This document shows positions 16,761-41,370 of a stretch of DNA of 48,971 nucleotides, in pieces. The stretch comes from an uncultured Pseudomonadales bacterium (GTDB taxonomy: Bacteria; Patescibacteriota; Microgenomatia; UBA1400; PJMF01): contig CAZHLX010000002.1 in the NCBI GenBank assembly GCA_964533345.1, positions 1 to 48,971 on the forward strand. The letters are read 5' to 3'. The notes beneath the pieces are model-generated. The model was given only the letters and a program-made list of their open reading frames with translations. It had not been told where the DNA came from and searched no databases. The translations under genes were made by a program, and so were the position numbers. Position 1 is the stretch's first letter. Every line of letters starts with the position of its first letter.

Positions 16761-16813
16761 AAGTACATTCTATGCTATACATTGAGATACATAAAGAAGT
16801 TATAAGGAGCCTT

Positions 16814-17338: not shown

Positions 17339-17341
17339 CTC

Positions 17342-18577: not shown

Positions 18578-18622
18578 TCACCAAGTTTACCACCAGAAAT
18601 AAATTACGATAATGAGTAGTAG

Positions 18623-19192
18623 TTAGTCTGCTTTAGCAGGTTTAATCTTAAGCTTCTTTTTCCAACCTAAATCAAGAGCAGACTCTATTTTTTTCTCAGC
18701 CTCTTCTAAATCCAAGCCCAACACGTGTGCTGTTTCTTGTTTAAATCGATTCATCACCATATAAAAAGTATTGCGCTTGCTGATTGTGAAATTCTTATCT
18801 TCATCTCTTTTCTCTTCCCAAAGTGTTTTAAGAACTTCAGATAATTCATGGAGAACATTATCACTGATAGTTCTCTTGACCTTCAATTGATTGAACTGGG
18901 CCTTAGTGTACTCACCTTGTCTTAAAAACTTTAGCTCTTCTTTCAAGGTAGTTTTATTGACTGGGAGCCTAATAGTGGTCTTATCAATATTTCCTAAGGG
19001 AATAGAGAGTTTAAGAGTTTCATTACGTCTAGTTTTGTAAAGAGGCTCAAAATAAATAATCTTATCTTTATCTCCATCGCTATTCTCAAACTTCTCTACT
19101 TTAGAAATTTTATGAACAACTCCAAACCTAATGATTACATCTCCTCTTTTTAGATCTTTTAATTCTTCAACCATAGATGGACATTCTAACAT
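18623..19192 (-). CDS. CarD/CdnL-like RNA-polymerase-binding regulator
   Basis: N-terminal LKRGDVIIRFGVVHKISKVEKF...YFEPL...LSIPLGNIDKTTIRLPV resembles the CarD_CdnL_TRCF domain. Confidence 0.55.
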   Translation of the reverse strand: MLECPSMVEELKDLKRGDVIIRFGVVHKISKVEKFENSDGDKDKIIYFEPLYKTRRNETLKLSIPLGNIDKTTIRLPVNKTTLKEELKFLRQGEYTKAQFNQLKVKRTISDNVLHELSEVLKTLWEEKRDEDKNFTISKRNTFYMVMNRFKQETAHVLGLDLEEAEKKIESALDLGWKKKLKIKPAKAD

Positions 19193-19229: not shown

Positions 19230-19266
19230 TTGCACAGAATTACTAATGAGACTACAATCTGTAGTA
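19230..19266 (+). promoter_or_regulatory. Sigma70-type promoter TTGCAC-17-TACAAT with an overlapping 16-bp palindromic operator O1 (ACTACAATCTGTAGTA, 19251-19266)
   Basis: The -35 is at 19230-19235 and the -10 at 19253-19258. The inverted repeat ACTACA-N4-GTAGTA contains the TACA/TGTA core typical of BlaI/MecI/CopY boxes. The ATG at 19266 is 7 nt after the -10. Confidence 0.5.
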
Positions 19267-19604
19267 TGTCAAATGATATGAGTTGCTGCTTAGGACCTCT
19301 AGAGAGAGAGATACTGGAAATTTCATGGGAAAAAGATTGTCCTAGTGTTAAGTGTGTTTTAGTTGAGCTTAATAAATCAAGAAAAAAAACTGACAAACTT
19401 GCCTATACTACAGTTATGACCATCATGAAGAGATTGGTTAAGAAGAAAATTTTAGTCAGAAAGAAAGATGGTCGCTGTTATCGTTATGAAACAAAAGAGA
19501 CGAAAGAAGAGTTTGTCAGAAGAGTCAGTAGTTGCACTATCCAAAGTCTAAAAAGCAAATTTGGAGATGTTGCAATTGAAGCCTTGAGAAAAGAACTAAA
19601 ATAA
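19266..19604 (+). CDS. BlaI/MecI/CopY-family winged-helix repressor
   Basis: LGPLEREILEISWEK...SVKCVLVEL...KLAYTTVMTIMKRLVKKKILVRKKDGRCYRYE is the penicillinase-repressor fold. I moved the start from the track's TTG at 19230, which is the -35 box, to ATG 19266. ATG 19278 is an alternative. Confidence 0.75.
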   Translation: MSNDMSCCLGPLEREILEISWEKDCPSVKCVLVELNKSRKKTDKLAYTTVMTIMKRLVKKKILVRKKDGRCYRYETKETKEEFVRRVSSCTIQSLKSKFGDVAIEALRKELK

Positions 19605-19612: not shown

Positions 19613-19631
19613 CAATGGTTGACAACCATTG
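19613..19631. promoter_or_regulatory. Perfect 19-bp palindrome CAATGGTTG-A-CAACCATTG centred on a TTGACA -35 box
   Basis: All 9+9 positions pair when checked base by base. No U-tract follows, so a DNA-binding site is more likely than a terminator. Confidence 0.4.
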
Positions 19632-19656
19632 CTTGGAGACACTACACTCCGTAGTA
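19619..19656 (+). promoter_or_regulatory. Promoter TTGACA-18-TACACT for dsbA-ccdA with operator O2 (ACTACACTCCGTAGTA, 19641-19656) over the -10
   Basis: O2 matches O1 at 14 of 16 positions and has the same arms, ACTACA...GTAGTA. An AAAGGA Shine-Dalgarno and the ATG at 19680 lie downstream. Confidence 0.5.
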
Positions 19657-19679
19657 CTCTTACACGAAAGGATTTTCTA

Positions 19680-20429
19680 ATGTCTAACAGTTATTCACCT
19701 AATAGTACAAAAAATTTTGTAATAGATAATTTTGGTCTCATCTTTTTAGCGGTGGCCTTTTTTGTGGGGGGCTTCTTTACAGGTTCCATGTGGACCGAAA
19801 ATAAAATGATGAAATCTGATACTGTTGTTCAAGTAGAAAAAGAAGCTGATCAGAAACCAACAGAAGAAAAAAATAATCTTGACCAAATGCCACAAATTAA
19901 TGGTGATGATCATTTCAGAGGAGCAAAAAATCCAAAGATCTACTTAGTTGAGTACTCAGATTATGAATGCCCATTCTGTCAGAAGTTCCACCCCACTATG
20001 GAACAAGTTGTGGAGAAATATGGTGATCAAGTAGCTTGGGTCTTTAGACACTACCCACTTAGTTTTCATCCTAATGCTCAACCATCGGCTGAAGCTGCTG
20101 AGTGTATTGCTGACAGAAATGGAAATGATGCATTCTGGTCATTTACTGATGAAATATTCGCTCAAAATGAAAAATTGGGTGGCAAGCTAAGTTCCGAAGC
20201 CATAGATGCAGCCATTACTGCTAGTGGGGCTGATCTCCAGGAGATAAAAACATGTATTGATAATGGTGAAATGACCGATATTGTTTCAGCACACCAAACT
20301 GGTGGAGCCGCAGCAGGAGTTTCTGGTACTCCAGGAACTGTATTGGTAACAACCGATGGCCAATATGAGCTAATTGGTGGAGCTTTACCATTCGCACAAG
20401 TTGAACAAATAATTCAAAAATACTTGTAA
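19680..20429 (+). CDS. Membrane-anchored DsbA/BdbD-like thiol:disulfide oxidoreductase (CPFC)
   Basis: An N-terminal TM anchor is followed by VEYSDYECPFCQKFHP...FRHYPLSFHPNA...GVSGTPGTVL (the cis-Pro loop). I chose ATG 19680 over the track's TTG at 19629, which lies inside the promoter. Confidence 0.8.
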   Translation: MSNSYSPNSTKNFVIDNFGLIFLAVAFFVGGFFTGSMWTENKMMKSDTVVQVEKEADQKPTEEKNNLDQMPQINGDDHFRGAKNPKIYLVEYSDYECPFCQKFHPTMEQVVEKYGDQVAWVFRHYPLSFHPNAQPSAEAAECIADRNGNDAFWSFTDEIFAQNEKLGGKLSSEAIDAAITASGADLQEIKTCIDNGEMTDIVSAHQTGGAAAGVSGTPGTVLVTTDGQYELIGGALPFAQVEQIIQKYL

Positions 20430-20431: not shown

Positions 20432-21184
20432 ATGCCTGATCTAAGCCTGCTAGATGGTTCTGAAGTTAATTTATTGATAGCTTTTTTAGCGGGAGTCATC
20501 ACTTTCTTTGCAAGTTGCCTACTACCCTTAGTTCCAACTTATTTAGCTTACCTATCTGGAGTCTCATTGAATGATGCTGATAATGGGCAACAAAGATGGA
20601 GAATATTTCAAACAGGTTTACTATTTGTAATTGGTTTCATCTCCACTTTTGTTCTACTGGGACTGGCTGCAAGTCAGTTCGGAGGACTAATCAACTCTTA
20701 TAGAGATATCGTAGAAAAAGTTGCTGGCGTTTTATTTGTCTTGCTTGGATTATTCATGCTGGGAGTTTTTAAAAGTTCTTTTTTAAGTAAAGAAAGGAAG
20801 TTCAACCTCCATGGAAGATTTCAACAATACAAATCTTTACATGCAATATTAACAGGAGTAGCCTTTGGGTTTGGCTGGACACCATGCATTGGTCCTGTAT
20901 TGGCTGTAATCTTATTTTGGGCTGCCCAAGCAGACTCATCTCTAAAAGGAGCCCTTCTACTAACTGTCTACGGGATTGGGTTGGGGATACCCTTTTTGAT
21001 AATTTCACTTGGATTTGAGAAAATTATTCCCTGGTTAAAGAGAAATGCTCATATCTCTAAAGTAACTAATCTTATTTCTGGAATTATTATTCTGCTCGCT
21101 GGAATTTTACTAATCAAAGGTGACTTCCAAGAGCTTTCACTTTTTATCTTAAGACTCTTCAACCTAGAGGGACTATCCATCTAA
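20432..21184 (+). CDS. ccdA: Cytochrome c biogenesis/thiol-reductant transfer protein CcdA (DsbD TM-domain family)
   Basis: Six TM helices carry the two conserved cysteines (FFASCLLPLVP and WTPCIGPVL). The start is 2 nt after the dsbA-like stop. Confidence 0.85.
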   Translation: MPDLSLLDGSEVNLLIAFLAGVITFFASCLLPLVPTYLAYLSGVSLNDADNGQQRWRIFQTGLLFVIGFISTFVLLGLAASQFGGLINSYRDIVEKVAGVLFVLLGLFMLGVFKSSFLSKERKFNLHGRFQQYKSLHAILTGVAFGFGWTPCIGPVLAVILFWAAQADSSLKGALLLTVYGIGLGIPFLIISLGFEKIIPWLKRNAHISKVTNLISGIIILLAGILLIKGDFQELSLFILRLFNLEGLSI

Positions 21185-25128: not shown

Positions 25129-25557
25129 TTAGCGTGAGACACTAATAGTCTCACTGTTCTCAGCATCATCAGCTGTCACAGTGACAATATTATTTGAATC
25201 TACCTCAATACTGTAACCAGTATTGGCAGCAGTTCCATTTTCTGGATCTAAAGGCATGGTTTTAAGATAAGGTGCTAAAGGAGTACTTAGATCATCACAC
25301 CCAGTACAACTTCCAAGCTCTGTTGATGCTTGACCCGTAGCCAAACCAGTAGGCAGATTGCCATCATTATCAACAATGTATTCATGGGTAGCCGTCAGGA
25401 TACTATTAACATCATTCCAGCGCCGAGAGTTGCGAGCATCACCAAAGCGAGTAACTGGATCAAGCGCCACAAATACTACTGCTGCCAGCAAGGCGATAAT
25501 AGCAATAACAACTAAGATTTCAATTAGGGTAAAACCTTTTTGGAATGTTTTTTTCAT
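25129..25557 (-). CDS. Type IV pilin (probable major subunit), with a prepilin-type N-terminal cleavage/methylation signal
   Basis: MKKTFQKG|FTLIEILVVIAIIALLAAV has Gly-1, Phe+1 and Glu+5. It is a small 142-aa protein and the last gene of the pilus array. Confidence 0.85.
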   Translation of the reverse strand: MKKTFQKGFTLIEILVVIAIIALLAAVVFVALDPVTRFGDARNSRRWNDVNSILTATHEYIVDNDGNLPTGLATGQASTELGSCTGCDDLSTPLAPYLKTMPLDPENGTAANTGYSIEVDSNNIVTVTADDAENSETISVSR

Positions 25558-26820
25558 TTATTCTGTCTCCTTATTTTTTCCAACTACCACTATCACATCA
25601 TAGTCAGCATCACTGGTCAAGACTTCTTGACTAAGAACTATCTCATAGTCGCTATTTAATGCTCTTTCTAGATCATCAAAAATTTGATCTGGAATACTCT
25701 CTTTTAACTGAATCTCTGTCTCTTCATAATCATAGTTATCTGCATTGCCTGTTTCAAAATTCTCAAAGCCTTCTGCTGCTAGAATGTCTTCCACTACTCC
25801 TGCTTCTCCACTAATTCCACTCCCATTTAAAATTTGAACGAAATACTGAGCTAAATCAACTGATTCAGATGAGGGTGAGGGGTATACTTCTTCTTCAATA
25901 AGCACTTCTGTTTCTTCTATAACTACTGGCATTTCTTCTTGATTTTTTTCACTTGGTTGAAGAACATTAAAACTCTCCGGCAACCAGCCTCTAAAACTTA
26001 ATAAAGCTAGGAGCAATATACCCAATGCTGGAATGAGCGCTAACATTTTTACATTTTTACTGAGAGATTTCCTCTCTTTATCATCATTATTTTCTCTAAT
26101 CCTAGGCTTTGCTTTTTTTTCAATCACTTCATTCTTATCTTGCATTTTTACAATTCCCACCATGGGATGAAGATCTCTTTGTTTGAGATCTTTTACCTCC
26201 ATGTCATATCTTTCCCTAACAAAAATCATTAGAGATCCAATCTCTTTTTTAGGTTCAGAAGTATTCAAAGATTCTGAGCCAATTACTGCAGATTGATTTA
26301 CCACAACTGCCAAATTCCTATAACCTTGATAAATTAAAAGAATTGACTCTTTTTTAAACTTTATCTGACTAGCTAAAGCTAAACTTAAAGGTTCAACTCT
26401 ATTTACCTTAATATCTACTTCTTTAAAAGCTGCCATTATTTTTTCATATCTTTCTGTCACAAAAGCTGAAACTTGAATGGTAGTTTTATCCTCAGTCTTA
26501 TTCAAAATACGATGATGCCAATTTAAACCAGAAATATCTTCTGGAATTCTCTCTATAACTAGTTGTTTGAGAGCATCTACTAATAACTCATCCTTTTTCA
26601 GAGAAATCTGCTCATAGAGTACATATGAAAGATCATCACCTAAAATCACATAGGCTGATCTTCCAAAGGTTGATTTAATTTCTTTAAAGATAGGCTCGAA
26701 ATCTTCTTCTTTCCAAGATTCAGCTAGTAACTGCTCATTCTTGACCTGATCTCCCACAACCTGCCCGACTCGGATAGTCTCTCTATCTAGATAGATAACA
26801 GTTTTTTTTTGATTAAACAT
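25558..26820 (-). CDS. Pilus assembly protein: PilM/PilN-like N-terminal part, central TM helix, C-terminal LytR_C-like domain
   Basis: The cytoplasmic N-terminal region is about 250 aa. It is followed by a TM helix (MLALIPALGILLLALLSF) and a C-terminus VQILNGSGISGEAGVVEDILAAEGFENFETGNADNYDYEETEIQ, typical of the LytR cell-envelope C-terminal domain. Start and stop directly abut the flanking pilus genes. Confidence 0.45.
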   Translation of the reverse strand: MFNQKKTVIYLDRETIRVGQVVGDQVKNEQLLAESWKEEDFEPIFKEIKSTFGRSAYVILGDDLSYVLYEQISLKKDELLVDALKQLVIERIPEDISGLNWHHRILNKTEDKTTIQVSAFVTERYEKIMAAFKEVDIKVNRVEPLSLALASQIKFKKESILLIYQGYRNLAVVVNQSAVIGSESLNTSEPKKEIGSLMIFVRERYDMEVKDLKQRDLHPMVGIVKMQDKNEVIEKKAKPRIRENNDDKERKSLSKNVKMLALIPALGILLLALLSFRGWLPESFNVLQPSEKNQEEMPVVIEETEVLIEEEVYPSPSSESVDLAQYFVQILNGSGISGEAGVVEDILAAEGFENFETGNADNYDYEETEIQLKESIPDQIFDDLERALNSDYEIVLSQEVLTSDADYDVIVVVGKNKETE

Positions 26821-27219
26821 TTATATTTCTTGCCAGGTTAAAATATTTATACTTTGACCGGTTCTTTTTACAGTCAACTGTAATTGACGAACAAACTGAG
26901 GAGGACCACTGATTGTTCCCGTCACATCAATAGTTCTATCACTGCCTGCCCCAATCACATTAATAGTACAAGAACCATTACCTACCTGCAACGATCCACC
27001 TGAATAATTTACGTCATCACGTAAACGCAACAATGACTCTTCGACACAACTTTCAGCTACTTTAAGAACCTCTGCTCCTTTTTTATAAGTGAGTGAGTTT
27101 TGAGCTTCACCTATTCCAATCATACTGATCGAAACTGCTATTGCTAAAGCTACTGCAGAAATAATCAATAAGCTTGAAATTGCCATTAATCCAGCTTGTT
27201 TTTTATTAGTGTTTTTCAT
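26821..27219 (-). CDS. PilX_N-like minor pilus protein (N-terminal hydrophobic helix without Glu+5)
   Basis: KKQAGLMAISSLLIISAVALAIAVSISMIG resembles PilX N-terminal segments. Position within the pseudopilin block also supports the call. Confidence 0.45.
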   Translation of the reverse strand: MKNTNKKQAGLMAISSLLIISAVALAIAVSISMIGIGEAQNSLTYKKGAEVLKVAESCVEESLLRLRDDVNYSGGSLQVGNGSCTINVIGAGSDRTIDVTGTISGPPQFVRQLQLTVKRTGQSINILTWQEI

Positions 27220-27222
27220 AGT

Positions 27223-28557
27223 TTATGGTGCACAGCAACATGTATCAGACTTACTACCTCCCGTACAAAGATAATTTCCTCCTGATAAGTTTGTCTCTCC
27301 ATTATTTCTACAGGTTCTAGCATTTTTTCTACATGTTCCTCCAGTGTAACTATTCTGCTGACAGTATTCAGTACATGAAGTCGGGCTAGGTGTCGAAGTA
27401 GGACTTGGTTGGGGCGTACCACTAGGAAGAGGTGAGGAAGATGGCGTGGGACTTGGAACTGGAGCACAACAACAAGTATCAGCCTTTCTCCCCCCTGTAC
27501 AAAACACACTCCCACTGGTTTCACGTGTTTCTCCATTATTGTCGCATTGATTTTTATTTGCTCTACAAATACCGTCACCATATCCCAAAGACTGACAAAT
27601 TTCTGGACATGAGCTAGGTGATGGACTTGGAGAAGGAGATGAGGATGGACTTGGTGTTGGAGTTGGAGATGGTTGGCCCCCAGATTCTTCAATATAAAAC
27701 TCAGCTTTAGCTACAGCTCCATCACCCAAAATAAACTCTAATGAAAATGTTCCACCATCTATCCTGCTATCAAAATCTAAACTATCTAAGTTTACTATTC
27801 CTGCTGTGGGAGAAAGTATATAGTTAGTAAGATCTAGGTTTGATCCTGATCCTTGACTTCCAGACCAGATGCTATTTCCATCTAAAACTACTTGAGTAAT
27901 ATTTTCTCCACCAGCTGTACCCATCCAACTAATTGTTAGTTGATTAATTGTAAGATCAATATTACCCGTATTTTCTATAGTTATGCCCTCAATACTTCTG
28001 TTATTTGCAGAAGCAACCACACCACTTAAATCAATTAATAAGCTGCGACTTTGATTAAATGCAGAGTTAAGCTCAATAGACTCAGCCAAGGAAATACTAG
28101 CATCATAAGCGGCAGCTCCATCTTGAGCCTGATCAATACTTAGCTCAATATTCAATTGTTTACTATCAGTATTACTACTACTAAATTCACTAAAGTTTAA
28201 GTTCGAAACTATGACTTTATCATTAGTCAAATCATACGGACCACCACCTGGAGTAGTAATTTGAAGAGTATTCCCGTTCAATAATAAAGAAGTAGTGCCA
28301 TCAGGATTAGTTAATTGAAGCTCAGTACTACTAATTACATTAAAATTAGCTGCTCTTCTAAGCTCATAATTAATTCTTCCCATAGCCACTCTAGCTGATT
28401 GCTCAACCACTTGTTGTGCATGAGCCTTTTGCCGACCATAAATGATGTCCCAAATAAAATTGGTCATCCCCACCAAAAATATTGACACAATTGCTACATA
28501 AAGAATTAACTCTATTAAAGAAAAGCCGCCAGTAGTTTTTATAAGTATCTTCTTCAT
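27223..28557 (-). CDS. Large pseudopilin (444 aa) with two tandem C-terminal 8-Cys CCCAP modules
   Basis: I reset the start to ATG 28557 (MKKILIKTTGG|FSLIELILYVAIVSIF, Glu+5), which forms an ATGA overlap with the upstream stop. The central beta-rich region is followed by PS linker - module - PST linker - module - stop. Confidence 0.8.
   Translation of the reverse strand: MKKILIKTTGGFSLIELILYVAIVSIFLVGMTNFIWDIIYGRQKAHAQQVVEQSARVAMGRINYELRRAANFNVISSTELQLTNPDGTTSLLLNGNTLQITTPGGGPYDLTNDKVIVSNLNFSEFSSSNTDSKQLNIELSIDQAQDGAAAYDASISLAESIELNSAFNQSRSLLIDLSGVVASANNRSIEGITIENTGNIDLTINQLTISWMGTAGGENITQVVLDGNSIWSGSQGSGSNLDLTNYILSPTAGIVNLDSLDFDSRIDGGTFSLEFILGDGAVAKAEFYIEESGGQPSPTPTPSPSSSPSPSPSPSSCPEICQSLGYGDGICRANKNQCDNNGETRETSGSVFCTGGRKADTCCCAPVPSPTPSSSPLPSGTPQPSPTSTPSPTSCTEYCQQNSYTGGTCRKNARTCRNNGETNLSGGNYLCTGGSKSDTCCCAP
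27226..27375 (-). repeat. Cys-rich module copy B2 (CTEYCQQNSYTGGTCRKNARTCRNNGETNLSGGNYLCTGGSKSDTCCCAP)
   Basis: I translated this by hand from the reverse strand. Its spacing is identical to the other two copies, and it is the exact C-terminus. Confidence 0.85.
27376..27459 (-). repeat. Low-complexity Pro/Ser/Thr linker (VPSPTPSSSPLPSGTPQPSPTSTPSPTS)
   Basis: A 28-aa PST-rich spacer between modules B1 and B2. Confidence 0.8.
27460..27609 (-). repeat. Cys-rich module copy B1 (CPEICQSLGYGDGICRANKNQCDNNGETRETSGSVFCTGGRKADTCCCAP)
   Basis: Translated by hand. The CCCAP codons TGT TGT TGT GCT CCA end at 27460. Confidence 0.85.
27610..27681 (-). repeat. Low-complexity Pro/Ser linker (GGQPSPTPTPSPSSSPSPSPSPSS)
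   Basis: A 24-aa spacer preceding module B1. The DNA is a degenerate GGA/TGG-type repeat on the plus strand. Confidence 0.8.
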
Positions 28558-29222
28558 GGTGCACAACAGCAAGTATCTGCTCCTCCACCTCCAGTACAAT
28601 AAGTGTCACCAACTGATTCGTATGTTTCCCCATTATTATTACATTGATTCGCATTAGCTCTGCATGTACCAGTAGAATAACTTTGGCTTACACAATAATC
28701 ACTACAGGTAGTAACTCCTCCCGTTCCACCCCCACCTGACCCTGCTCCTACTGAAAGCTGCCAATCAGTTAGATATTGATTTAACTCGACCATGTTATTT
28801 CTAGTTGGTGTAAAATCCCAGCTTACATTAACATTAATCAAATAGGTCTGATCATCTACCGTTCCCCCTGTGGAAATCACATCACCATTGCCATCTCTCT
28901 CCACCTGACTAACTGTAATTGTCCGAGTGTATCTACCACTGGGATCTACATCACTACTTCCACTAAAAACCCAATTTCCACCACTATTACTCAATCCATA
29001 GGTGCCTACACTCAGGTTATTCCAATCTTGATTTCTAATCGACTGAACTGCTTCTAGTCCCTCTTCCGCAATTAGAGTTGCTTTCACCTCTTCTTTAGCC
29101 AAACGAGTTGAGGAGAAGGAACCTAAGACAACAATGGTAGTGCTTCCAGCGATAATGACAAATAAAGCTACAGCAATAATAACTTCAATGATGCTCATCC
29201 CTGACTGAGACTTAATTGACAT
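28554..29222 (-). CDS. Pseudopilin (222 aa) with a single C-terminal 8-Cys CCCAP module
   Basis: MSIKSQSG|MSIIEVIIAVALFVIIAG (Glu+5), a globular region, a Gly-rich linker SGGGGTGGVTT, then the module and stop. Confidence 0.8.
   Translation of the reverse strand: MSIKSQSGMSIIEVIIAVALFVIIAGSTTIVVLGSFSSTRLAKEEVKATLIAEEGLEAVQSIRNQDWNNLSVGTYGLSNSGGNWVFSGSSDVDPSGRYTRTITVSQVERDGNGDVISTGGTVDDQTYLINVNVSWDFTPTRNNMVELNQYLTDWQLSVGAGSGGGGTGGVTTCSDYCVSQSYSTGTCRANANQCNNNGETYESVGDTYCTGGGGADTCCCAP
28557..28706 (-). repeat. Cys-rich module copy A (CSDYCVSQSYSTGTCRANANQCNNNGETYESVGDTYCTGGGGADTCCCAP)
   Basis: The first Cys codon is at 28704-28706 and the last Pro codon at 28557-28559, both checked against the DNA. 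Confidence 0.85.
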
Positions 29223-29649
29223 TCACTACTCCCACTTCATTAACTGTCACCGTAGAGCTACTACCATCATTAGCTGTCAGAATATAAGTGGCTACAACAT
29301 CCGGCTCACCAACAACTCTACTAAAAACTACTTCATCATTAGTAATACTGATGCTCCCAGGAATATTAAAGCTTGTATCAAAACTAGGATCACGAGTGAT
29401 ATAGCTATTGCCCTTGAAAAGAGTCATTTGATTACCACTCACACTCACTCCCCACTGGCTATTTTCTTTACCACTCATTGAGTTAAGTTGGGCTGTAATT
29501 AAAATAGAAGCTAATTCATTAGTCTTATTTTCTAAATAATTAGTAACTAAAAATCTCTGCCCAATAGCAGACCCAGAAACTCCAATAATCGAAACTATAG
29601 CGACTACTAAAAGTAACTCAATAAGAGTAAACCCATTTTTTCTCTTCAT
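29212..29649 (-). CDS. Pseudopilin (145 aa) without a Cys module
   Basis: I reset the start to ATG 29649 (MKRKNG|FTLIELLLVVAIVSII, Glu+5). There is an 11-nt overlap with the next pseudopilin. Confidence 0.8.
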   Translation of the reverse strand: MKRKNGFTLIELLLVVAIVSIIGVSGSAIGQRFLVTNYLENKTNELASILITAQLNSMSGKENSQWGVSVSGNQMTLFKGNSYITRDPSFDTSFNIPGSISITNDEVVFSRVVGEPDVVATYILTANDGSSSTVTVNEVGVVNVN

Positions 29650-29762
29650 GGATTTGACAGGGAGATAAAAACTAATCCAACAACGATAGCCCACACAACA
29701 ATAACTCCCAATCCAAGGAAGAATGGCAGAGGGCTAGTTGGGTCATAATTTTTTACACTCAT
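29646..29762 (-). CDS. Unannotated 38-aa hydrophobic micro-ORF between pilC and the first pseudopilin
   Basis: Hand translation gives MSVKNYDPTSPLPFFLGLGVIVVWAIVVGLVFISLSNP*. The ATG is 1 nt after the pilC TAG and is preceded by AGGAGG. Its TGA forms an ATGA overlap with the pseudopilin ATG, so it fills the whole gap. Confidence 0.4.
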   Translation of the reverse strand: MSVKNYDPTSPLPFFLGLGVIVVWAIVVGLVFISLSNP

Positions 29763-29763
29763 C

Positions 29764-30822
29764 CTACCTCCTAATACTACCTGTTAACTCATAGATTGGA
29801 CTGATAATAGCCATAGCAACAAATGCCACCATCAGCCCCACACCTAATAAAAGGAATGGTTCTAAAATTGTAGTCAGATTTTTACTGATATTATCAATTT
29901 CTTCTTCATAGTAGTCGCCTAAATATAATAACGTCTCATCAACTTTTCCTGTTCTCTCGCCAATTGAGATCATTCTTGAAACAAGTTGTGGAAAACAAGT
30001 TTGATTAACTTTCTCAATTGCCTCTCCAATTGGCTGCCCTTTCTGAAGAGATTGCTCAACCTTCTGAATGTCTTGCTGCAGTTTTACATTAGAAACTGTC
30101 TCTGACACTACTGCTAAACTCTGAGCAATTGGAACTCCACTTTGAATAAGAACCCCTAGATTTCTAGAAAATCTAGCAAACTGAGCACTACTAATCATCT
30201 GCCCAATCAGGGGCAATTTAAACTTAGCTCCATCCCACTTTGGTTTAACACTGGGCAAATGAGTAATGAAGTATGAGAGCCCAAATAATCCAATTAATCC
30301 TAAAATTATCCATAATCCATAATCCCTGATACCAATCGCTATGAACAACAAGATCTTAGTTGCAAAAGGAAGATCAATGTCGAAAGCAGTAAAGAGATCA
30401 ATTAACTGCGGCAGAATAAAAAATGAAATTACTCCTCCCATAATTAGAGTCGCAAATAAAATCAAACTTGGATAGAGCATTGCTCCTTGAACTTTTTTCT
30501 TAAGCTGTAGATCTTTAGCTAACTGCTTGGCTAAGAAGGATAGGTTCTCTTCTAGTGTTCCTGATTCTTCTCCAATTGAGACTAGACTAGTGTATAAACC
30601 ATCAAAAACACGAGGGTGGCTCTTCAAGGAATTAGCTAAAGACTTACCATTCTCTACATCAGAAACTACTTTTTTTAATATTTCTTTTAACCCTGAGTCA
30701 TGAGTTTGGTTTTTAGCAATATCTAAAGCCTCAGCCAAAGGAATTCCCGCCTTAATCATCGTTGCAAGATGCTTGGTGAAAATTAGTTTTTCGTTAGCTT
30801 TTACTGGAGAGAGTAATTTCAT
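29764..30822 (-). CDS. pilC: Type IV pilus/T2SS platform protein PilC (GspF family)
   Basis: Two T2SSF repeats (FTKHLATMIKAGIPLAEAL... and FARFSRNLGVLIQSGVPIAQSL...) and 3 TM segments. Confidence 0.9.
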   Translation of the reverse strand: MKLLSPVKANEKLIFTKHLATMIKAGIPLAEALDIAKNQTHDSGLKEILKKVVSDVENGKSLANSLKSHPRVFDGLYTSLVSIGEESGTLEENLSFLAKQLAKDLQLKKKVQGAMLYPSLILFATLIMGGVISFFILPQLIDLFTAFDIDLPFATKILLFIAIGIRDYGLWIILGLIGLFGLSYFITHLPSVKPKWDGAKFKLPLIGQMISSAQFARFSRNLGVLIQSGVPIAQSLAVVSETVSNVKLQQDIQKVEQSLQKGQPIGEAIEKVNQTCFPQLVSRMISIGERTGKVDETLLYLGDYYEEEIDNISKNLTTILEPFLLLGVGLMVAFVAMAIISPIYELTGSIRR

Positions 30823-30849
30823 GGGCAGTAGTGATTTAATTAATTAAAC

Positions 30850-32523
30850 TTATTCCTTAGTAACTCTTAATATTTCTTCTAAAGTAGTTATTCCTTTTTT
30901 AATCTTATCTAGACCATCCTCAAAGATGGTGGTCATACCCTCTTCAACAGCAATTTGATGAATAATACTGGCATCTTTTTGCTCAGTGATTGCTTCTCTG
31001 ATTTTTTCTGAAACTTCTAATACCTCAAACACACCTACTCTTCCCACATAACCACTCCCATGACAGACATCACACCCTTTCCCTTTATAGAAAGAAGATA
31101 CAGCACCTAAGTGTTTGTCCAGAATTTCTGGCTTCACAGCTGAATCTTTCAAATACTCTTCCTTAGTAACTGAAACTCGACAGCTTTGACAAATCTTTCT
31201 AACCAAACGCTGAGCAATTACCACATTCACTGTAGAAGCGAGAAGGTATGGCTCAACATCCATATCAATTAATCTTGGGAAAGCAGTTGCCGCATCATTA
31301 GTATGCAATGTAGACAATACTAAGTGCCCAGTCATAGCTGAATTGATTGCAATTCCAGCTGTCTCTTCATCACGTATTTCACCAACTAAAATAATATCTG
31401 GATCTTGGCGAACAATAGAGCGTAATCCCTTAGCAAAAGTCAGCTCTGTCTTAACATTGACTTGAATTTGGTTGACTCTCTCCAGGTCATACTCCACTGG
31501 ATCCTCAATGGTCATGATGTTGACATCTTTACGATTTAAAATTTTTAAGATTGCATATAAAGAAGTTGTCTTACCAGAACCAGTTGGCCCGGTGGAAAGA
31601 ATCATCCCATGTGGACGCTCATAAGCTGCGGTGACTCTTTTCAAACCATCAGCTTGCATTCCTAGATCTTGTAGAGATAATTGTCGAGAGCGTTCTGACA
31701 AAAGGCGCATTACTATTTTTTCACCTTCTGTAACTGGAACTATAGAAACACGCAAATCTAACTCTTCTTGATCTGTCTGAAACTGAAGTTTTCCATCTTG
31801 TGCAGTTTGGTGTTCATCAATTCTTAAACGGGCCATAACCTTAATCCTCATAACAATTTGAGGATGTAAATCCCTAGGAAGTGAAGTCACATCATGAAGC
31901 ACCCCATCAATTCTGAATCGAACTAATGCTTCATTATCTAAAGGCTCTAAATGAACATCAGAAGCTTTATTTTGATATGCATACCAGATAATGGTATCAA
32001 CTATTTTAATAATTGGTGGTTCTGCCTTTTCAGTTTTTTTAGCTTTTTCTACATTCTCACTAATAATTTCTTCAAAGGCTGATGATACATCCTGAACGTA
32101 TAAGCTTAAGACATCCATAATATCTGACTTGAGAGCCAAATATGCTTTTACTGGCAGACCAGTCTTCTTTTCTACGAATTCACGTATCTGTGAATCATGA
32201 GGGTTCGCCATTGCCAGGTGCAATCCAGACTCATCCTTCTTGAAAGCAATTACGAGCTGCTTTCGAGCAACTATCTCTGGAACAACTTTTAACACCTCTT
32301 CATGGATATGAGTTTTACCTAGTACTATGTGGGGAACATCAATTAGATCAGCAACTAATCTAACCAAATCTTTTTGATCAATTAAGTTTTTTTCTAAAAG
32401 AATATCTCCTAGAGATTTCTTTTGAAGATCAGCCTCTTCAAAGGCAGCCTTAAGCTTATCAACGGGAATAACCTTTAACTCTGCTAAAGACTTAAGTAGT
32501 TGTTTGTTGTCATACAAAGACAT
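30850..32523 (-). CDS. pilB: Type IV pilus assembly ATPase PilB (GspE family)
   Basis: An N-terminal T2SE_N domain, Walker A GPTGSGKTT, Asp/His boxes (VGEIRDEETA, TGHLVLSTLHTN), and the tetracysteine CQSC...CDVCHGSG. Confidence 0.9.
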   Translation of the reverse strand: MSLYDNKQLLKSLAELKVIPVDKLKAAFEEADLQKKSLGDILLEKNLIDQKDLVRLVADLIDVPHIVLGKTHIHEEVLKVVPEIVARKQLVIAFKKDESGLHLAMANPHDSQIREFVEKKTGLPVKAYLALKSDIMDVLSLYVQDVSSAFEEIISENVEKAKKTEKAEPPIIKIVDTIIWYAYQNKASDVHLEPLDNEALVRFRIDGVLHDVTSLPRDLHPQIVMRIKVMARLRIDEHQTAQDGKLQFQTDQEELDLRVSIVPVTEGEKIVMRLLSERSRQLSLQDLGMQADGLKRVTAAYERPHGMILSTGPTGSGKTTSLYAILKILNRKDVNIMTIEDPVEYDLERVNQIQVNVKTELTFAKGLRSIVRQDPDIILVGEIRDEETAGIAINSAMTGHLVLSTLHTNDAATAFPRLIDMDVEPYLLASTVNVVIAQRLVRKICQSCRVSVTKEEYLKDSAVKPEILDKHLGAVSSFYKGKGCDVCHGSGYVGRVGVFEVLEVSEKIREAITEQKDASIIHQIAVEEGMTTIFEDGLDKIKKGITTLEEILRVTKE

Positions 32524-32540: not shown

Positions 32541-32906
32541 CTATTCAGATTTATAAGTTTCAACCTTCTTTACCAGATCTTCTAGCTCCATATCTGCTTT
32601 GACCACATAATCATCAGCTCCCAATTCTTTTGCTTTATCAATATCCTCTTTTTGACCTAAGTTTGAGGCTACGATAACTGGAATACTTTTATATGATTCA
32701 TTTGTTTTTATCTCTTCCAGAGTGGTAAAACCATCTTTATTCGGCATGATCAAATCAAGCAAGATTACTTCTGGAGTAAACTCTTCTAAAATTTTTAAGG
32801 CCTCAACTCCATCACCAGCAATTTGAACATCAAAGCCAACTTTTGTCAGCTTTACTCGATAAGCATTGGCCAAAAACTTGTCATCTTCAGCAATTAAAAT
32901 TTTCAT
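32541..32906 (-). CDS. Single-domain (CheY-like) response regulator
   Basis: I reset the start to ATG 32906 (MKILIAEDD...ILLDLIMPNKDG...VIVASN...DYVVKA). It is a receiver domain only, with no output domain. Confidence 0.85.
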   Translation of the reverse strand: MKILIAEDDKFLANAYRVKLTKVGFDVQIAGDGVEALKILEEFTPEVILLDLIMPNKDGFTTLEEIKTNESYKSIPVIVASNLGQKEDIDKAKELGADDYVVKADMELEDLVKKVETYKSE

Positions 32907-32907
32907 T

Positions 32908-33315
32908 TTACTTCTCCTTTTTATCACTGGTAATAAACTCATCAAATGTCTTGACAATCTCATCTAAACGATGTTCTGCCTTCAAGAGGTACTTCTTTGC
33001 TCCTAGAGCTAACATGCTATGGATTTTGTCATCACTGGCAGAGTTACTTACTACCACCACCGGAATATTGCTCCACTTATCATTAGATTTAAACTGATTC
33101 ATCAAATCTAAACCATTTAAATCCTCCCCTAAGTAATAATCCAACCAAATAGCATCAGGTAGTTCTGGTAAATTTTTCAAGTAATCTATAGCCTGATCAC
33201 CTGTAGTAGCAGTGATGGCTTCATAGCCACTTGCCTCTAGCTTCTTGGCAATGGCCTGAAGCAATAGAGCCTCGTCTTCAATTACTAAAATTGTTCTTTT
33301 ATAAGTAGCTACCAT
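32908..33315 (-). CDS. Single-domain (CheY-like) response regulator
   Basis: ILVIEDEALL...AIWLDYYLGEDLNG...VVVVSN...KKYLLKA. It is a receiver domain only. Confidence 0.85.
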   Translation of the reverse strand: MVATYKRTILVIEDEALLLQAIAKKLEASGYEAITATTGDQAIDYLKNLPELPDAIWLDYYLGEDLNGLDLMNQFKSNDKWSNIPVVVVSNSASDDKIHSMLALGAKKYLLKAEHRLDEIVKTFDEFITSDKKEK

Positions 33316-35723
33316 TAGGAGTCACCTTTCTGTGGTTTATCTTCTTTTGTATCACTTTGAGGCTCTTTTTTCACCTCTGCTTTTTTTTCCTGAGACTTAA
33401 GATGACCCTCACCCAAACGAACCTCACCTTCCTTAGCTTTCATTCCACTCAAAGGTAGAGAAAACCAAAAAGTAGTACCATCACCTTCTTTACTCTCAAA
33501 CCAAATTTTGCCATGTGAAGACTCAACAATTGCCTTAGTTAGATAGAGACCCAATCCTGTACCATCAGTCTCAGTCTTGGTAACATTTGAAGCCCGATGG
33601 AATTTTTCAAACATTTTTTCTTGATCTTTTACAGGGATGCCTAATCCATTATCACTTATCTGTGAAATAACATTTTCTTTATCTTTAGAAATAAGAACTG
33701 TAATCTCTCCCTTTTTGGGAGTGTATTTAATGGCATTGGTAAGAAGATTGCGATACACTTCTATAGTTAAATTTGGATCTACACTAATCTTGCCCATTCT
33801 CTCATTTTTGCTGCAGATTACACTTAACTCTTTTTCCTTAATTTTTGGCTCTAACTCAATTAACAACTCGTTAACTAACTCATTCAGATCCGTTGGTTTT
33901 GGCTCAACAATGATCCGACCAGACTCTATTCTGGAGATATTCAGTAATCCATTTACTAAGGCGATCATCCTTTGATTTGATTGATCAACATTTTCAACCA
34001 TCTCTTTTTGTTCTTTAGAAAGCTCTCCTGCATCTCCTGCTAGGAGCATCTCTAAGAACCATTTCATAGCAGACAAAGGCGTGCGAAGTTGATGTGACGC
34101 AAGTGAAATAAACTCTGTTTTCATTCGATCTATTTCTTTTTCACGAGTCACATCACGTTCTATCCCCACAAAGAAAACAACTTCATCTTTGTCATTTAGG
34201 ACAGGAGAAATATTTGCGATTGCAATATATTCTTGACCATTTTTTCTCTTATTTTTTATTTCACCTACAAAATTTTCACCACTTTTTATTGTGTTCCAAA
34301 GTTTTTTATATGTATCAAGATCAGCTAGCCCTCCCCACAATTCCTTTGATCCAGCCTTTTTCCCAATTACTTCTTGATTGCTAAAGCCAGTAATTCTCTC
34401 AACGGCTGAGTTGGCATATAGAACTATTCCTTCTGCATCTGTGATTACAATATGATCTGAGGCATGCTCAACAGCTAATTGGAACTTTTCTAACTCTTTA
34501 GACTGCTTTTCAGCAAATTGCTTTTCGTCTGCCACATCTTCAAGAACATTTAAGATGGCCTTGCGCTGATTACTAACATCCTTTGATGTCTGTTGAATTT
34601 TTTCTGTCTGCTCATATACTTTCTGGTCAATTTCCGCTCTGGACTGTTTAATAGCTAGTGTCATCTCATCAAAGGCACGAGAAAGCATTCCTACTTCGTC
34701 TTTGGATTTAGTGCCAACTTTATGATCAAGATCACCTCTTTTTATTTTCTCTACTCCAATCTGTAATTTGTGAATAGGTCGTGTAATTTTTCTAGAAAAT
34801 CTCAGGATTAAAAATACAAAAAACACATAAGCAATAACAATCATTACTATTCTTAGTCTTAACAAACTATCAAGTGAAGCAAAAGCTTCTTTATGATCAA
34901 TTTTCGCCACTAGGCCTAAGTCAAAGTCATCCAAGTATTTACTCACAGCAATCACCTCTTCACCTCTATAATCTAAATGGCCGTTAATTCTTTTCTGTTC
35001 ACCATGCAAGGCATCTTTCATTGGCTTTGCTACTTGAGAATCATGGTCATCAATTTCTGAAGATTTTGCTGAAAACTTTCTTTCACTAATATATGTAATG
35101 TGGTGATTGTCATCTTCAAAAGCGAGCAGCACTTCACCTGTCTCACCAATTCCTGTGTCTTCACTTAGAATTAATGAAAGTGACTCTATATTAACAACAG
35201 AAATTGCTACCCCAATTAACTCATCATTTAAGATCAAAGGACCTGAAACATAAATCTTTAACTGCCCACGATCTTCTACAAAAAAAACATCCTCTTTCTC
35301 TTTCCCTCTTAGATAAAAATCTTTTCCTTCACATTCTGTTCCTAAATAGCTCTGGTCAGTGGAGATTATTACTTTACCCTCTAAGTTGATAATACAAATT
35401 CTTTCTAAACTGGGTATTGGAGCAGCAGCATCCTCAATAATGCTTAAAACTGTTTCTAAATGCTCTTCTTTTGGATTATCGTTATACTCAGCAAGAGTTT
35501 GGCGAAGTTTTGTTCTACTAGTAATTAGTTTCAATCTTTCAATCTGTTGCTCAAAATATGTCTCAACATGGTTTTTTCTGGATTCAGCAGTTGTTTCCAA
35601 GTGCTTAAATACCTGATTATGAAACTCAATGGAAGTGTATTTAGCAATTGAAAGGCTAATGAAACCAATAATCAAAAATGATGGTAGTAAAACAGCTAAT
35701 AATAGCTTTGATTTAATTTTCAT
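33315..35723 (-). CDS. Sensor histidine kinase: TM - Cache-like extracytoplasmic domain - TM - HAMP - PAS - HisKA - HATPase_c
   Basis: Two TM helices flank a loop of about 260 aa. HAMP (RPIHKLQIGVEKIKRGDLDHKV...DEVGMLSRAFDEM), PAS (HIVITDAEGIVLYANSAVERITGF), H-box FISLASHQLRTPL, N/G boxes NLLTNAIKYT, DNGLGIP and GTGLGLYL. Confidence 0.9.
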   Translation of the reverse strand: MKIKSKLLLAVLLPSFLIIGFISLSIAKYTSIEFHNQVFKHLETTAESRKNHVETYFEQQIERLKLITSRTKLRQTLAEYNDNPKEEHLETVLSIIEDAAAPIPSLERICIINLEGKVIISTDQSYLGTECEGKDFYLRGKEKEDVFFVEDRGQLKIYVSGPLILNDELIGVAISVVNIESLSLILSEDTGIGETGEVLLAFEDDNHHITYISERKFSAKSSEIDDHDSQVAKPMKDALHGEQKRINGHLDYRGEEVIAVSKYLDDFDLGLVAKIDHKEAFASLDSLLRLRIVMIVIAYVFFVFLILRFSRKITRPIHKLQIGVEKIKRGDLDHKVGTKSKDEVGMLSRAFDEMTLAIKQSRAEIDQKVYEQTEKIQQTSKDVSNQRKAILNVLEDVADEKQFAEKQSKELEKFQLAVEHASDHIVITDAEGIVLYANSAVERITGFSNQEVIGKKAGSKELWGGLADLDTYKKLWNTIKSGENFVGEIKNKRKNGQEYIAIANISPVLNDKDEVVFFVGIERDVTREKEIDRMKTEFISLASHQLRTPLSAMKWFLEMLLAGDAGELSKEQKEMVENVDQSNQRMIALVNGLLNISRIESGRIIVEPKPTDLNELVNELLIELEPKIKEKELSVICSKNERMGKISVDPNLTIEVYRNLLTNAIKYTPKKGEITVLISKDKENVISQISDNGLGIPVKDQEKMFEKFHRASNVTKTETDGTGLGLYLTKAIVESSHGKIWFESKEGDGTTFWFSLPLSGMKAKEGEVRLGEGHLKSQEKKAEVKKEPQSDTKEDKPQKGDS

Positions 35724-36984
35724 TTTTCTTTTTTATCTCTTTTTTAAGCTCAACCATTTTTAATTCCCTCCCCACCATAGATTGATTAAGCTTCTCTAAC
35801 TCCTCAGTTCTCTCTTTTACTTGCTCTTCAACGTGTTCTCTTGAAGAAACCAATTGGTTAATCATCTCATTAAAGGCCTCCGCCAACTTTCCAATTTCAT
35901 CTTCAGATCTTATCTCAACCCTTGTTTTTAGATTGCCGGCAGAAATATCTTCAGCTGCCTGAGTTAAATCAGATAAAGGACGTGATAATCTTGTGATCAG
36001 CAGCGAAATTATTACTCCAGCAAAGATGGCCGCAAATACAACAAATGCGGTAATTGTATGAGCGCTTTTTGTGGCAAAAGATTCAACAATTTCTAAATCC
36101 ATTTCTCCAACGATATAAAAGTCTAAATCTCCTATCCTCGCTACACTAAGGAGCTCTTCTTCATTATCAATCTTGTCACTAACTTCAAATGTCTTTGAAC
36201 CGTCTAAAGAATCTAGCTCATCAAGAACCTCAGAATAATCAAGAGCTCTAATTTCTTCATTTGCGTAGCGTTTATTCTCAGTTATTTCAGACAAAACTGA
36301 TTCTGGAAGCTGACCCAAACTGCAAAAAAGCTTCTTTTCATCATTAGAGAAAATAACTACTCCATAGCTATCAACCAACATAATTTTTCTATTATCCAAA
36401 ACTTGGTCAGATATTGTTTCATGTATTGCTTCTGGCTTAAGCTTAGCAACAGCCACCCCAATTATTTGACCATCAGAGGATAAAATGGGATGCGAGAAAT
36501 AGTATCCAAGTTTCCCACTAGTTACTCCAACTGCAACATCAGTAAATGATTCTCCACTAACAGCCTCTTTAAAATAATCTCTAAATGAATAATTTTTTCC
36601 TATAAACCTCTCATCAGTTGATGCAACAGTCAAACCATCTTTATCCATCAGATAAATGGCTGAGTACATATCTGCAATATTAAAATCATAAAGCAAACCA
36701 TGATTAATTACGTGATCTAGATCATCTCCAGTAGGATCCTCTAACATCCCCACCACATTGTGTTGAGTTGCAATTGTTTTAACCAAATCCTGAGAATGAT
36801 TAAAGACTTGCTTTGTCTCATGTGCTTGGATAGTTGTTGCCACTAAAGCATCATCCTTTGTTACCTCACTCATAATGTTTTTTGAAATAAAATAAGTAGC
36901 TACTGATGCAAAAGCTCCAAAGAAAATAATTATTCCTAAAATTGAACCAATGACCTTTGTTTTTACAGACCTAAGTTTAAGCAT
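35713..36984 (-). CDS. Membrane sensor without an output domain: TM - dCache-like domain - TM - HAMP - short coiled coil
   Basis: An N-terminal TM helix, a loop of about 270 aa (MYSAIYLMDKDGLTVAST...YFSHPI...GVAVAKL), a second TM helix and HAMP (RPLSDLTQAAEDISAGNLKTRV...DEIGKLAEAFNEM). It ends after EELEKLNQSMVGRELKMVELKKEIKK. Confidence 0.7.
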   Translation of the reverse strand: MLKLRSVKTKVIGSILGIIIFFGAFASVATYFISKNIMSEVTKDDALVATTIQAHETKQVFNHSQDLVKTIATQHNVVGMLEDPTGDDLDHVINHGLLYDFNIADMYSAIYLMDKDGLTVASTDERFIGKNYSFRDYFKEAVSGESFTDVAVGVTSGKLGYYFSHPILSSDGQIIGVAVAKLKPEAIHETISDQVLDNRKIMLVDSYGVVIFSNDEKKLFCSLGQLPESVLSEITENKRYANEEIRALDYSEVLDELDSLDGSKTFEVSDKIDNEEELLSVARIGDLDFYIVGEMDLEIVESFATKSAHTITAFVVFAAIFAGVIISLLITRLSRPLSDLTQAAEDISAGNLKTRVEIRSEDEIGKLAEAFNEMINQLVSSREHVEEQVKERTEELEKLNQSMVGRELKMVELKKEIKKKNEN

Positions 36985-37576
36985 TACTACCTTTTAAGGT
37001 TTCATCGTTAAGATGACCTGTTTTACGAGCTAATTTCTTTAAAGCTTCTTTAAGCTCAATCATCTTCAACTCCCTATTTACCATTAATTTATTAAATTTT
37101 TCTAATTCTTCGAGATTTTCTCGGAGTTTCTCTTCAATATTCATCCTTTTAGAAACATCGTTATAAACTGCCATAATTTCTCCCGATGGCAATTTATAAA
37201 TATGGTTTTCTCTCCAGAAAACTTTTTCTCCATCCTCATATTTAGTTGGTTCAAGATATTTTTCTTTCCCTGTTTTATAAACTTCCTGGAATGATTTTAA
37301 TAAACCCATTTCTTCTACTCCAGGAAAGACGCTCTTCAAATCTTTTCCAATGACATCTTTCTTTTTTAAACCCTCAATCTTTTCTGCAGCATGATTAAAA
37401 TCCTTAAAAATAAATTTTTTACCTCTCTCTTTGACTTCATAAACGGCTATTCCACTGGGAACATTATTAAATAAAGACTCATAAAGAAGCTCATGTTCGG
37501 CGGATGATAGAGAAGATTTTTTTCTAACCGTTTTTTTAGTAGTAGTGGTTTTCTTTTTGGCAGGCATACAAAACAA
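36977..37576 (-). CDS. Cytoplasmic PAS-domain protein ending in the same coiled-coil motif
   Basis: A Lys/Thr-rich N-terminus, then a PAS core (LLYESLFNNVPSGIAVYEV...FKDFNHAAEKIEGL...), ending in EELEKFNKLMVNRELKMIELKEALKK. Confidence 0.65.
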   Translation of the reverse strand: MFCMPAKKKTTTTKKTVRKKSSLSSAEHELLYESLFNNVPSGIAVYEVKERGKKFIFKDFNHAAEKIEGLKKKDVIGKDLKSVFPGVEEMGLLKSFQEVYKTGKEKYLEPTKYEDGEKVFWRENHIYKLPSGEIMAVYNDVSKRMNIEEKLRENLEELEKFNKLMVNRELKMIELKEALKKLARKTGHLNDETLKGSNA

Positions 37577-41360: not shown

Positions 41361-41370
41361 TAAAATTAAT

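Follow-up and report, generated by a model that had tools for sequence, protein, structure and literature searches.

The window analyzed here is a contig of 48,971 nucleotides (CAZHLX010000002.1, GenBank assembly GCA_964533345.1) from an uncultured bacterium placed by GTDB in the Patescibacteriota. It contains one co-directional type IV pilus cluster on the minus strand (25129-32523), in which genes with T2SSE and T2SSF domains lie together with two adjacent minor pilins, termed pilin A and pilin B, and with other N_methyl proteins. Pilin A ends in a 50-residue module containing eight Cys and pilin B carries two further copies of the same module. The features of the cluster and of a nearby group of redox genes are collected in Table 1; the module, its predicted fold, and the proteins that carry it are described below.

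Table 1. Positions of the module copies, their linkers and carrier pilins, the remaining pilus genes, and the redox genes in the window (a slash marks the prepilin cleavage site)
Feature	Position	Strand	Remarks
Module copy A, 50 amino acids, eight Cys	28557-28706	minus	C terminus of pilin A; translation checked; TGA directly after
Module copy B1	27460-27609	minus	Internal in pilin B; followed by a Pro/Ser/Thr linker
Module copy B2	27226-27375	minus	C terminus of pilin B; TAA directly after
Gly-rich linker of pilin A, about residues 156-172 (...LSVGAGSGGGGTGGVTT)	28707-28757	minus	Predicted local distance difference test score (pLDDT) <50 at residues 161-167
Pro/Ser/Thr linker between B1 and B2 (VPSPTPSSSPLPSGTPQPSPTSTPSPTS)	27376-27459	minus	Read from the sequence; similar linkers throughout the family
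Pilin A, 222-residue PilV/GspI-like minor pilin, signal ...SQSG/MSIIE, one module	28554-29222	minus	Sub-threshold N_methyl, PilV, and GspI; AlphaFold2 pilin fold
Pilin B, 444-residue minor pilin, PilW/GspJ position, signal G/FSLIE, two modules	27223-28557	minus	Open reading frame; ATGA overlap
PilB-type assembly ATPase	30850-32523	minus	T2SSE E 1e-130; MshEN
PilC-type platform protein	29764-30822	minus	T2SSF E 1.5e-62
First minor pilin of the operon, GFTLIE, FimU/GspH position, no module	29212-29694	minus	N_methyl E 6.7e-8
132-residue protein, N-terminal hydrophobic helix, PilX/GspK position, no module	26821-27219	minus	Gene order kept in L001, L002, and L005
420-residue membrane protein, PilM/N position, C-terminal LytR_C	25558-26820	minus	LytR_C E 5e-9; syntenic in L002
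142-residue probable major pilin, GFTLIE	25129-25557	minus	N_methyl E 6.7e-9; orthologues in L001, L002, and L005
BlaI-type repressor (Penicillinase_R)	19230-19604	plus	
DsbA-like thioredoxin-fold protein	19629-20429	plus	Thioredoxin_4 E 7e-20; DSBA E 2e-12
CcdA/DsbD-type membrane protein	20432-21184	plus	DsbD_TM E 2e-19

The initial annotation of this DNA described three co-linear units of 50 residues and eight Cys, and both its coordinates and its translations agree letter for letter with the minus strand. The Cys spacing, which it had called invariant, is identical in copies A, B1, and B2, and copies A and B2 are the literal C termini of their proteins with a stop codon directly behind each. 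A six-frame regular-expression scan of the whole window reveals no fourth copy. Pairwise identities among the copies are 61-64% for the DNA and 56-62% for the protein, and at 11-12 of the 28-31 residues that are identical in each pair different codons are used. Calculated by the method of Nei and Gojobori, the proportion of synonymous differences (pS) among the window copies is 0.62-0.80 compared with 0.28-0.33 for nonsynonymous differences (pN), and addition of the copies from two related loci (L001 and L002) gives a pS of 0.62-0.93, which is near saturation, and a pN of 0.20-0.36. As pS is nearly saturated and pN is far lower, the copies are old duplications under purifying selection on the protein and not a recent DNA repeat, in agreement with the earlier view that conservation is at the protein level.

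Both carrier proteins begin with the canonical prepilin signals recognized in the initial annotation, with a short leader ending in Gly, Glu at position +5, and a hydrophobic helix (G/MSIIE in pilin A and G/FSLIE in pilin B). The library profiles fall just short of their cut-offs, with N_methyl scoring 20.9 and 18.4 bits on pilins A and B (Pfam cut-off 21.2) and TIGR02532 lying just under its cut-off on both N termini. Pilin A scores 21.3 bits against the PilV model TIGR02523 (cut-off 52.2) and 15.6 bits against GspI (cut-off 44.35), and pilin B has weak NCBIfam matches to PRK10557, HpsC, and TIGR02599. The AlphaFold2 model of full-length pilin A (pLDDT 91.8) is a canonical pilin composed of the α1 helix (residues 11-65) and a β-sheet (residues 73-152), and its best PDB match found by Foldseek is the tip pseudopilin EpsI (2ret_A), with a probability of 0.91 but an E value of 0.07. 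No exact match to pilin A is on record among the collected assemblies. The true start of pilin B is the ATG at 28557 (MKKILIKTTGG/FSLIE), which overlaps the stop codon of pilin A (ATGA, 28554-28557), and the genes for the first minor pilin and pilin A overlap by 11 nucleotides (29212-29222, minus strand); these overlaps suggest translational coupling of the tip-complex subunits. Pilin B is laid out as a pilin body, an unassigned domain of ~120 residues, and a linker-module-linker-module tail. The body of pilin B matches no PDB sequence. The middle domain (residues ~170-290; 27700-28060, minus strand) contains the motif ...ISWxGTxGGENITxV... and has its place after the pilin body, ahead of the first linker. 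Neither Pfam nor the PDB has a sequence match for it, the 27 relatives of pilin B have it in common, and by sequence comparison it is a second uncatalogued domain.

The distribution of the module was determined with HMMER in an index-free search of a hidden Markov model of the three copies against 1.84 billion cluster representatives (50% identity level). The search returns 165 clusters at E ≤ 1e-3, 58 at E ≤ 1e-10, and 6 at E ≤ 1e-30 with a best E value of 7e-42, and by these profile matches the pattern lies far beyond chance and the module is a genuine conserved domain family. A word-indexed homologue search with the three-copy profile gives 0 matches, and with a 120-member profile it gives one 65-residue protein. 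As the index-free search yielded 165 clusters, this null result does not mean that the module is rare, and word-indexed nulls for short Cys- and Gly-rich domains are not evidence of absence. Carriers were counted among the best 150 of the 165 matches, leaving 146 true carriers after four exclusions: P0023, P0140, and P0147 are false positives produced by many weak repeat matches, and the match in P0128 is partial, covering module residues 22-50 only. One cluster of the family carries a name, "pseudopilin PulG."

Exactly eight Cys are present in 153 of the 165 extracted modules, for which the consensus reads C-x2-Y-C-x3-G-Y-x2-G-T-C-R-x-N-x2-Q-C-x2-N-G-E-T-x-E-x-G-G-D-x-Y-C-T-G-G-x3-D-T-C-C-C-x-P. 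Apart from the Cys, there is almost no variation at G13, R16, and G33, and conservation is strong at N18, E27, D34/N34, D44, and T45. The initial annotation could assign the module to no known family. This stands insofar as no Pfam or NCBIfam model scores above threshold on the module, but a defensin signature and recurrent weak matches to defensin families, described below, qualify it.

Structure prediction, which had been proposed as a check for an ordered fold, gives a confident AlphaFold2 model of the module from the 120-member alignment (mean pLDDT 94.6; predicted template modeling score 0.74). The predicted elements are a helix (residues 2-7), a strand (12-16), two helices (19-24 and 31-36), and a final strand (45-49). 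The same elements recur at residues 173-221 of the full-length pilin A model with a pLDDT of 94-98, following the linker in which the score drops below 50 (161-167). Foldseek with the module finds 0 matches in the PDB, a short domain with a large insert being a hard case for this comparison, and against viral models it returns noise only (E > 3).

The pairing of the Cys is suggested by natural variants containing six Cys. Every such variant falls into one of two classes: six modules lack both Cys5 and Cys48, and two lack both Cys1 and Cys46. Such co-loss in the aligned sequences points to the disulfides 1-46 and 5-48, and the way residues alternate along the strands, together with where the inserted helices lie, makes C15-C47 and C22-C37 the probable remaining bonds. 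The initial annotation had left a choice between a small knotted domain with four disulfides and a thiolate metal site. Because the Cys are lost in pairs, disulfides are favored over a metal-thiolate cluster, the knot being putative. A thioester-type covalent adhesin was also considered and dropped, all eight Cys being accounted for in pairs and Gln21 being only ~50% conserved.

In cis-defensins, which have the cysteine-stabilized αβ (CS-αβ) scaffold, the CxxxC of a helix is bonded to the CxC of the last strand and a GxC lies on the strand between them. The module shows the first of these features, with C1 and C5 in helix 2-7 and C46 and C48 in strand 45-49, paired as the co-loss implies. It also shows the GxC (γ-core), with 163 of 168 modules having G13 and all 168 having C15, on strand 12-16. 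The canonical third disulfide, between the GxC Cys and a pre-helix Cys, is absent, as the module begins at C1 and has no Cys ahead of the CxxxC, which leaves C22, C37, and C47 as the only partners for C15. Nor is the module a free cationic secreted peptide, being a domain of large anchored proteins with a median net charge of -2.

Weak profile matches of the module point in the same direction. Scanned one by one against Pfam, 120 members match PF24552 (Defensin-like) in 63 cases (best E 0.0026), Gamma-thionin (PF00304) in 21 (best E 2.4e-4), and the arthropod defensin and scorpion toxin families in 5 each, with no other family matched by more than 3 of the 120; all of these defensin-family matches lie below the gathering scores. 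The PF24552 alignment covers the whole module with an insertion, and the Gamma-thionin alignment is local to residues 1-23. The best PDB sequence match of the three-copy profile is a 36-residue defensin (2ru0), of which CDRHCVSKGYTGGNCRGKIRQ is aligned to module residues 1-21. With the 120-member profile, seven PDB matches are obtained at E ≤ 10, of which four are defensins (plant 4uj0, 2ru0, insect 2ny9, and 2e3e), and one of these ranks first. An hhalign comparison with a small, manually entered plant-defensin alignment gives P = 1e-4 and a probability of 56% over residues 1-22, and likewise manually entered controls (β-defensin, knottin, and epidermal growth factor) score <1% each. On these sequence features the module is defensin-like in its core, with superfamily membership unproven, and homology to defensins, as opposed to convergence, is putative.

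At least 98 of the 146 carriers are type IV pilins. The pilin A body (PilV/GspI-like) is found in 53 and the pilin B body in 27, another 10 are other bacterial prepilins, and 8 have archaeal-type class III signal peptides. The remaining 48 lack a recognizable pilin N terminus and include gene fragments, truncated archaeal pilins, membrane proteins with a single N-terminal anchor, P0024, which is a protein of the PilX-position type bearing a module, and P0067, in which a signal-peptidase-I-like N-terminal part (SGSMEP motif) is joined to a C-terminal module. The preference for pilin-like N termini that the initial annotation had proposed to look for is therefore present, and its picture of a pilin-displayed module holds for most carriers but has to be widened to non-pilin membrane-anchored proteins and archaeal pilins. 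Carriers are 150-900 residues long and contain one module in 127 cases, two in 18, and three in one. The expected placement after a flexible linker and at the protein end is also the usual one: the 20 residues upstream of the module are 55% Pro/Ser/Thr/Gly compared with a background of 33%, and the last module ends ≤3 residues from the C terminus in 121 of the 146. Two unusual arrangements are those of P0142, with three divergent tandem copies, and P0002, in which ~120 residues that appear fibronectin-III-like by eye separate two modules.

Three other assemblies (L001, L002, and L005) have this type IV pilus operon too, and the module sits on the corresponding pilins. The L001 orthologue of pilin A has one module and the next pilin has none, L002 has one module on each of the two orthologues, and L005 has a 222-residue pilin with one module and a 443-residue pilin with two, such that the pilin B orthologues range from 0 to 2 copies. 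Among the carriers with archaeal signal peptides, P0013 lies on a 147-kb contig encoding a thermosome. The archaeal contig L003, with a thermosome gene at 3479-5116, encodes in the region 8001-12387 a 750-residue pilin with two tandem modules in the middle of the protein and a shortened third variant at its C terminus (C-x3-C-x9-C-x3-C...CCC). Four more genes with archaeal pilin-type N termini follow the archaeal carrier pilin. The archaeal pilins among the carriers show that filament subunits of analogous kind bear the module in Archaea as in Bacteria.

The first minor pilin of the window operon likely has its real start at ~29649 (MKRKNG), and relatives of its type bear the module elsewhere (e.g. 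P0032, P0055, and P0070). The 132-residue protein has no Pfam match and by its position may take the PilX/GspK role. The LytR_C domain on the PilM/PilN-position protein is an unusual fusion that is kept in L002 (2911-3978). No gene of the window was recognized as encoding a prepilin peptidase, and the cluster contains neither a PilY1-type adhesin gene nor a secretin gene. Directly upstream of pilB (32541-36984, minus strand) lie genes for two stand-alone receiver proteins, an 802-residue dCache-HAMP-PAS histidine kinase, and a 423-residue dCache-HAMP protein. A receiver gene adjoins pilB in L005 also, and this placement in both loci suggests sensory control of the pilus. The DsbA-like and CcdA-like genes, 6 kb away, are candidates for a machinery that makes or shuffles extracytoplasmic disulfides, with a possible link to the folding of the module.

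Elsewhere in the window, a S-adenosylmethionine (SAM) riboswitch (RF00162, 51.5 bits) occupies 41368-41473 on the minus strand upstream of a SAM synthetase gene, the true start of which is probably further downstream because the listed GTG start (41382) overlaps the riboswitch. A 214-residue protein (1034-1678, minus strand) has the odd combination of an N-terminal HTH_25 and a C-terminal Glucodextranase_B-like domain, and LCP and LytR_C proteins are also encoded. These proteins, and a pilus cluster that lacks a secretin gene, suggest a monoderm organism of candidate-phyla type, and the major pilin appears similar to pilins from candidate phyla. The open reading frames in 14274-16058, 16772-19192, 36977-37576, 42751-43164, and 47720-48250, of 594, 188, 411, 189, 199, 137, and 176 amino acids, have no Pfam match at E ≤ 1e-4 (E ≤ 1e-3 for the last region), and no rRNA or tRNA gene is found in the window.

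The reading that we favor, and hold to be fairly probable, is that the module is a ligand-binding head and putative adhesin displayed at the pilus tip, with tip location, adhesin role, and kind of ligand all presumed. The 50-residue unit would be an independent mini-domain, exposed outside the cell and held together by four disulfides, and its core would have the cis-defensin arrangement of helix and strands with the helix CxxxC bonded to the C-terminal strand CxC, and the conserved two-helix insert of 28 residues would sit between the two strands. Evolution would have grafted one to three tandem copies by Gly or Pro/Ser/Thr linkers onto the C termini of minor pilins of the PilV/GspI type and the PilW/GspJ position, which are expected to prime assembly and afterwards to occupy the tip of the filament. 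Once their leaders are cleaved and PilB and PilC have assembled them, pilins A and B would together display three modules there. Like the effectors of other modular pilins, these would bind, in a multivalent manner, to some component on the surface of a host or partner cell. The conserved polar and aromatic residues (R16, N18, N25-G26-E27, G33-D34, Y36, and D44-T45) gather in and near the insert, making this region the candidate binding surface. Because the module is a rigid independent mini-domain on flexible tethers and occurs in tandem copies, a displayed multivalent head is favored over a structural element. The same preference follows from its varying copy number on orthologues, its presence on several presumed-tip subunits, and its reuse on surface proteins and archaeal pilins.

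The likelihoods expressed here are judgements, and what they leave over is assigned to no reading. A structural role, in which the module stabilizes the tip complex of minor pilins as a stiff cap resistant to proteases or as a clasp between subunits (for example by binding between the A and B modules) and has no external ligand, would be consistent with a disulfide-locked unit found on several subunits of one presumed complex (the H, I, J, and X positions). Linkers of up to ~30 residues, tandem copies, and a variable number of modules (0-3 on orthologous pilins) are however typical of displayed binding modules, and the module is likewise attached to anchored proteins that are not pilins and to archaeal pilins whose bodies are unrelated, which leaves a purely structural role unlikely. 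The resemblance to defensins raises a different possibility, namely a pilus-tip defensin or toxin that attacks the partner envelope, for example by lipid II binding or membrane perturbation, rather than merely adhering. The cis-defensin-like Cys signature and the weak matches in defensin and scorpion-toxin families agree with this, and bacteria are known to encode cis-defensins as free-standing peptides (PMC11561630). The mostly anionic character of the modules makes an antimicrobial role unlikely, with copy A carrying about -4 against the cationic charge of antimicrobial defensins. Furthermore, the module starts at the CxxxC without a pre-helix segment, where in the aligned defensins the match begins at chain residue 11-22, the inter-strand loop is replaced by the 28-residue insert, and the unit is covalently tethered to a pilin with no evident processing site. 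An effector of this kind thus appears quite unlikely. Binding of a metal or cluster by the eight Cys would suit their high density, the CCC triplet, and the conserved Asp, Glu, and Asn as possible extra ligands. The strictly pairwise loss of Cys at positions matching a known disulfide pattern speaks against it, as do the extracellular location on secreted pilins, the nearby DsbA-like and CcdA-like genes, and the very high confidence of a model built without metal, and we regard such a site as very improbable.

Several observations also weigh against the tip-displayed, defensin-like binding head itself. About one-third of the carriers have no recognizable pilin N terminus, some being fragments and others simple membrane-anchored proteins, which makes the module a general surface module and not one specific to pili. 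The tip location is carried over by analogy from the known behavior of PilV/W/X and GspI/J/K and is presumptive for pilins A and B. The defensin relation rests on the Cys signature and sub-threshold matches, since Foldseek found nothing similar in the PDB or among viral models. In addition, these matches disagree with one another: in the Gamma-thionin and hhalign alignments (residues 1-22 only) Cys22 falls on the leading Cys of the defensin CxC, whereas the co-loss puts the CxC at residues 46-48.

In comparison with cis-defensins, the C-x3-C-x9-C-x6-C spacing of the module is identical to that of plant defensins (PF00304), its proposed pairing follows the same rule (i to j and i+4 to j+2), and its weak matches are nearly confined to these families (PF00304, arthropod/fungal PF01097, PF24552-like, and actinodefensin). 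Substantial differences occur in the 28-residue two-helix insert with its own Cys pair, which takes the place of a short hairpin, and in the third disulfide, which without a pre-helix Cys must be rewired to the middle Cys of the CCC. Moreover, the module is anionic and part of large membrane-anchored proteins rather than a free secreted peptide, and it occurs in uncultivated bacteria and archaea of groups not listed in the bacterial defensin survey (PMC11561630). That 2024 census comprises 74 free peptides from Proteobacteria, one Acidobacterium, and one Actinobacterium, and by design it left out proteins of >130 residues or with a transmembrane segment (PMC11561630). A far-reaching reading, which is speculative and on present evidence doubtful, is that the module is a true, deeply divergent cis-defensin homologue serving as the host-recognition head on the pilus tips of ultra-small episymbiotic bacteria and archaea. 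If so, the CS-αβ scaffold would be an ancient prokaryotic tethered domain for binding cell surfaces that spans both domains of life, and free antimicrobial defensins could be released descendants of tethered binding modules. The module would add a large prokaryotic family with a defensin signature, where the prokaryotic origin of the scaffold is an open question, and it could readily be proposed as a new family for Pfam or InterPro.

Domains of the hevein/CBM18 type have a size like that of the module (40-50 residues), four disulfides, and conserved Tyr, Gly, and polar residues, and occur in tandem on linkers. Their Cys pattern is unlike that of the module and no profile match is found, so the resemblance is one of functional analogy only.

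How ultra-small host-dependent bacteria and archaea recognize and hold their partners is largely unknown, with type IV pili as leading candidates. In the systems studied in depth, the minor pilins FimU/PilV/PilW/PilX or GspH/I/J/K prime assembly and remain at the filament tip (PMC11623550). The window resembles these systems in having four consecutive pilin-like genes beside pilB and pilC, and pilin A resembles PilV/GspI in its weak NCBIfam matches and its best fold match. It differs in the marginal sequence similarity of its pilins and in the lack of the PilY1-type adhesin and secretin genes noted above, and the adhesive function may be built into the pilins by means of the modules. Efficient host binding by a cultivated Saccharibacterium requires a minor pilin that bears a C-terminal accessory domain, and this is so far the one cultivated system examined for the requirement (PMC11623550). 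A novel pilus recently described in candidate-phyla bacteria (10.64898/2026.03.03.709456) is an unrelated donor-strand system.

Grafting of an effector module onto a pilin by a linker is a recognized route to new binding functions of pili, as in Streptococcus sanguinis PilB (von Willebrand factor type A, vWA, module) and PilC (lectin module) and in CofB of enterotoxigenic Escherichia coli (PMC8179133, PMC9934059), and the strategy is frequent in candidate-phyla bacteria (PMC8179133). The components that define a modular pilin (Raynaud et al. 2021, PMC8179133) are found in the pilin A model, namely a pilin fold, a linker with pLDDT <50, and an independent module, and here too an N-terminal pilin module, linker, and C-terminal effector are combined on presumed tip minor pilins. 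The known modules are large vWA, lectin, β-sandwich, or β-propeller domains, whereas the present one, known from sequence and model, is a 50-residue four-disulfide mini-domain that is often in tandem and sits on two adjacent minor pilins. Because it is compact, easily synthesized, and recurrent on presumed tip-complex pilins of numerous uncultivated lineages as well as on archaeal pilins, it offers a concrete handle for ligand fishing, antibodies, and host prediction. The modular minor pilin is a known kind of protein; the module is new, being a large uncatalogued family with a confident predicted fold, a defensin-type Cys core, and a distribution that crosses the domains of life.

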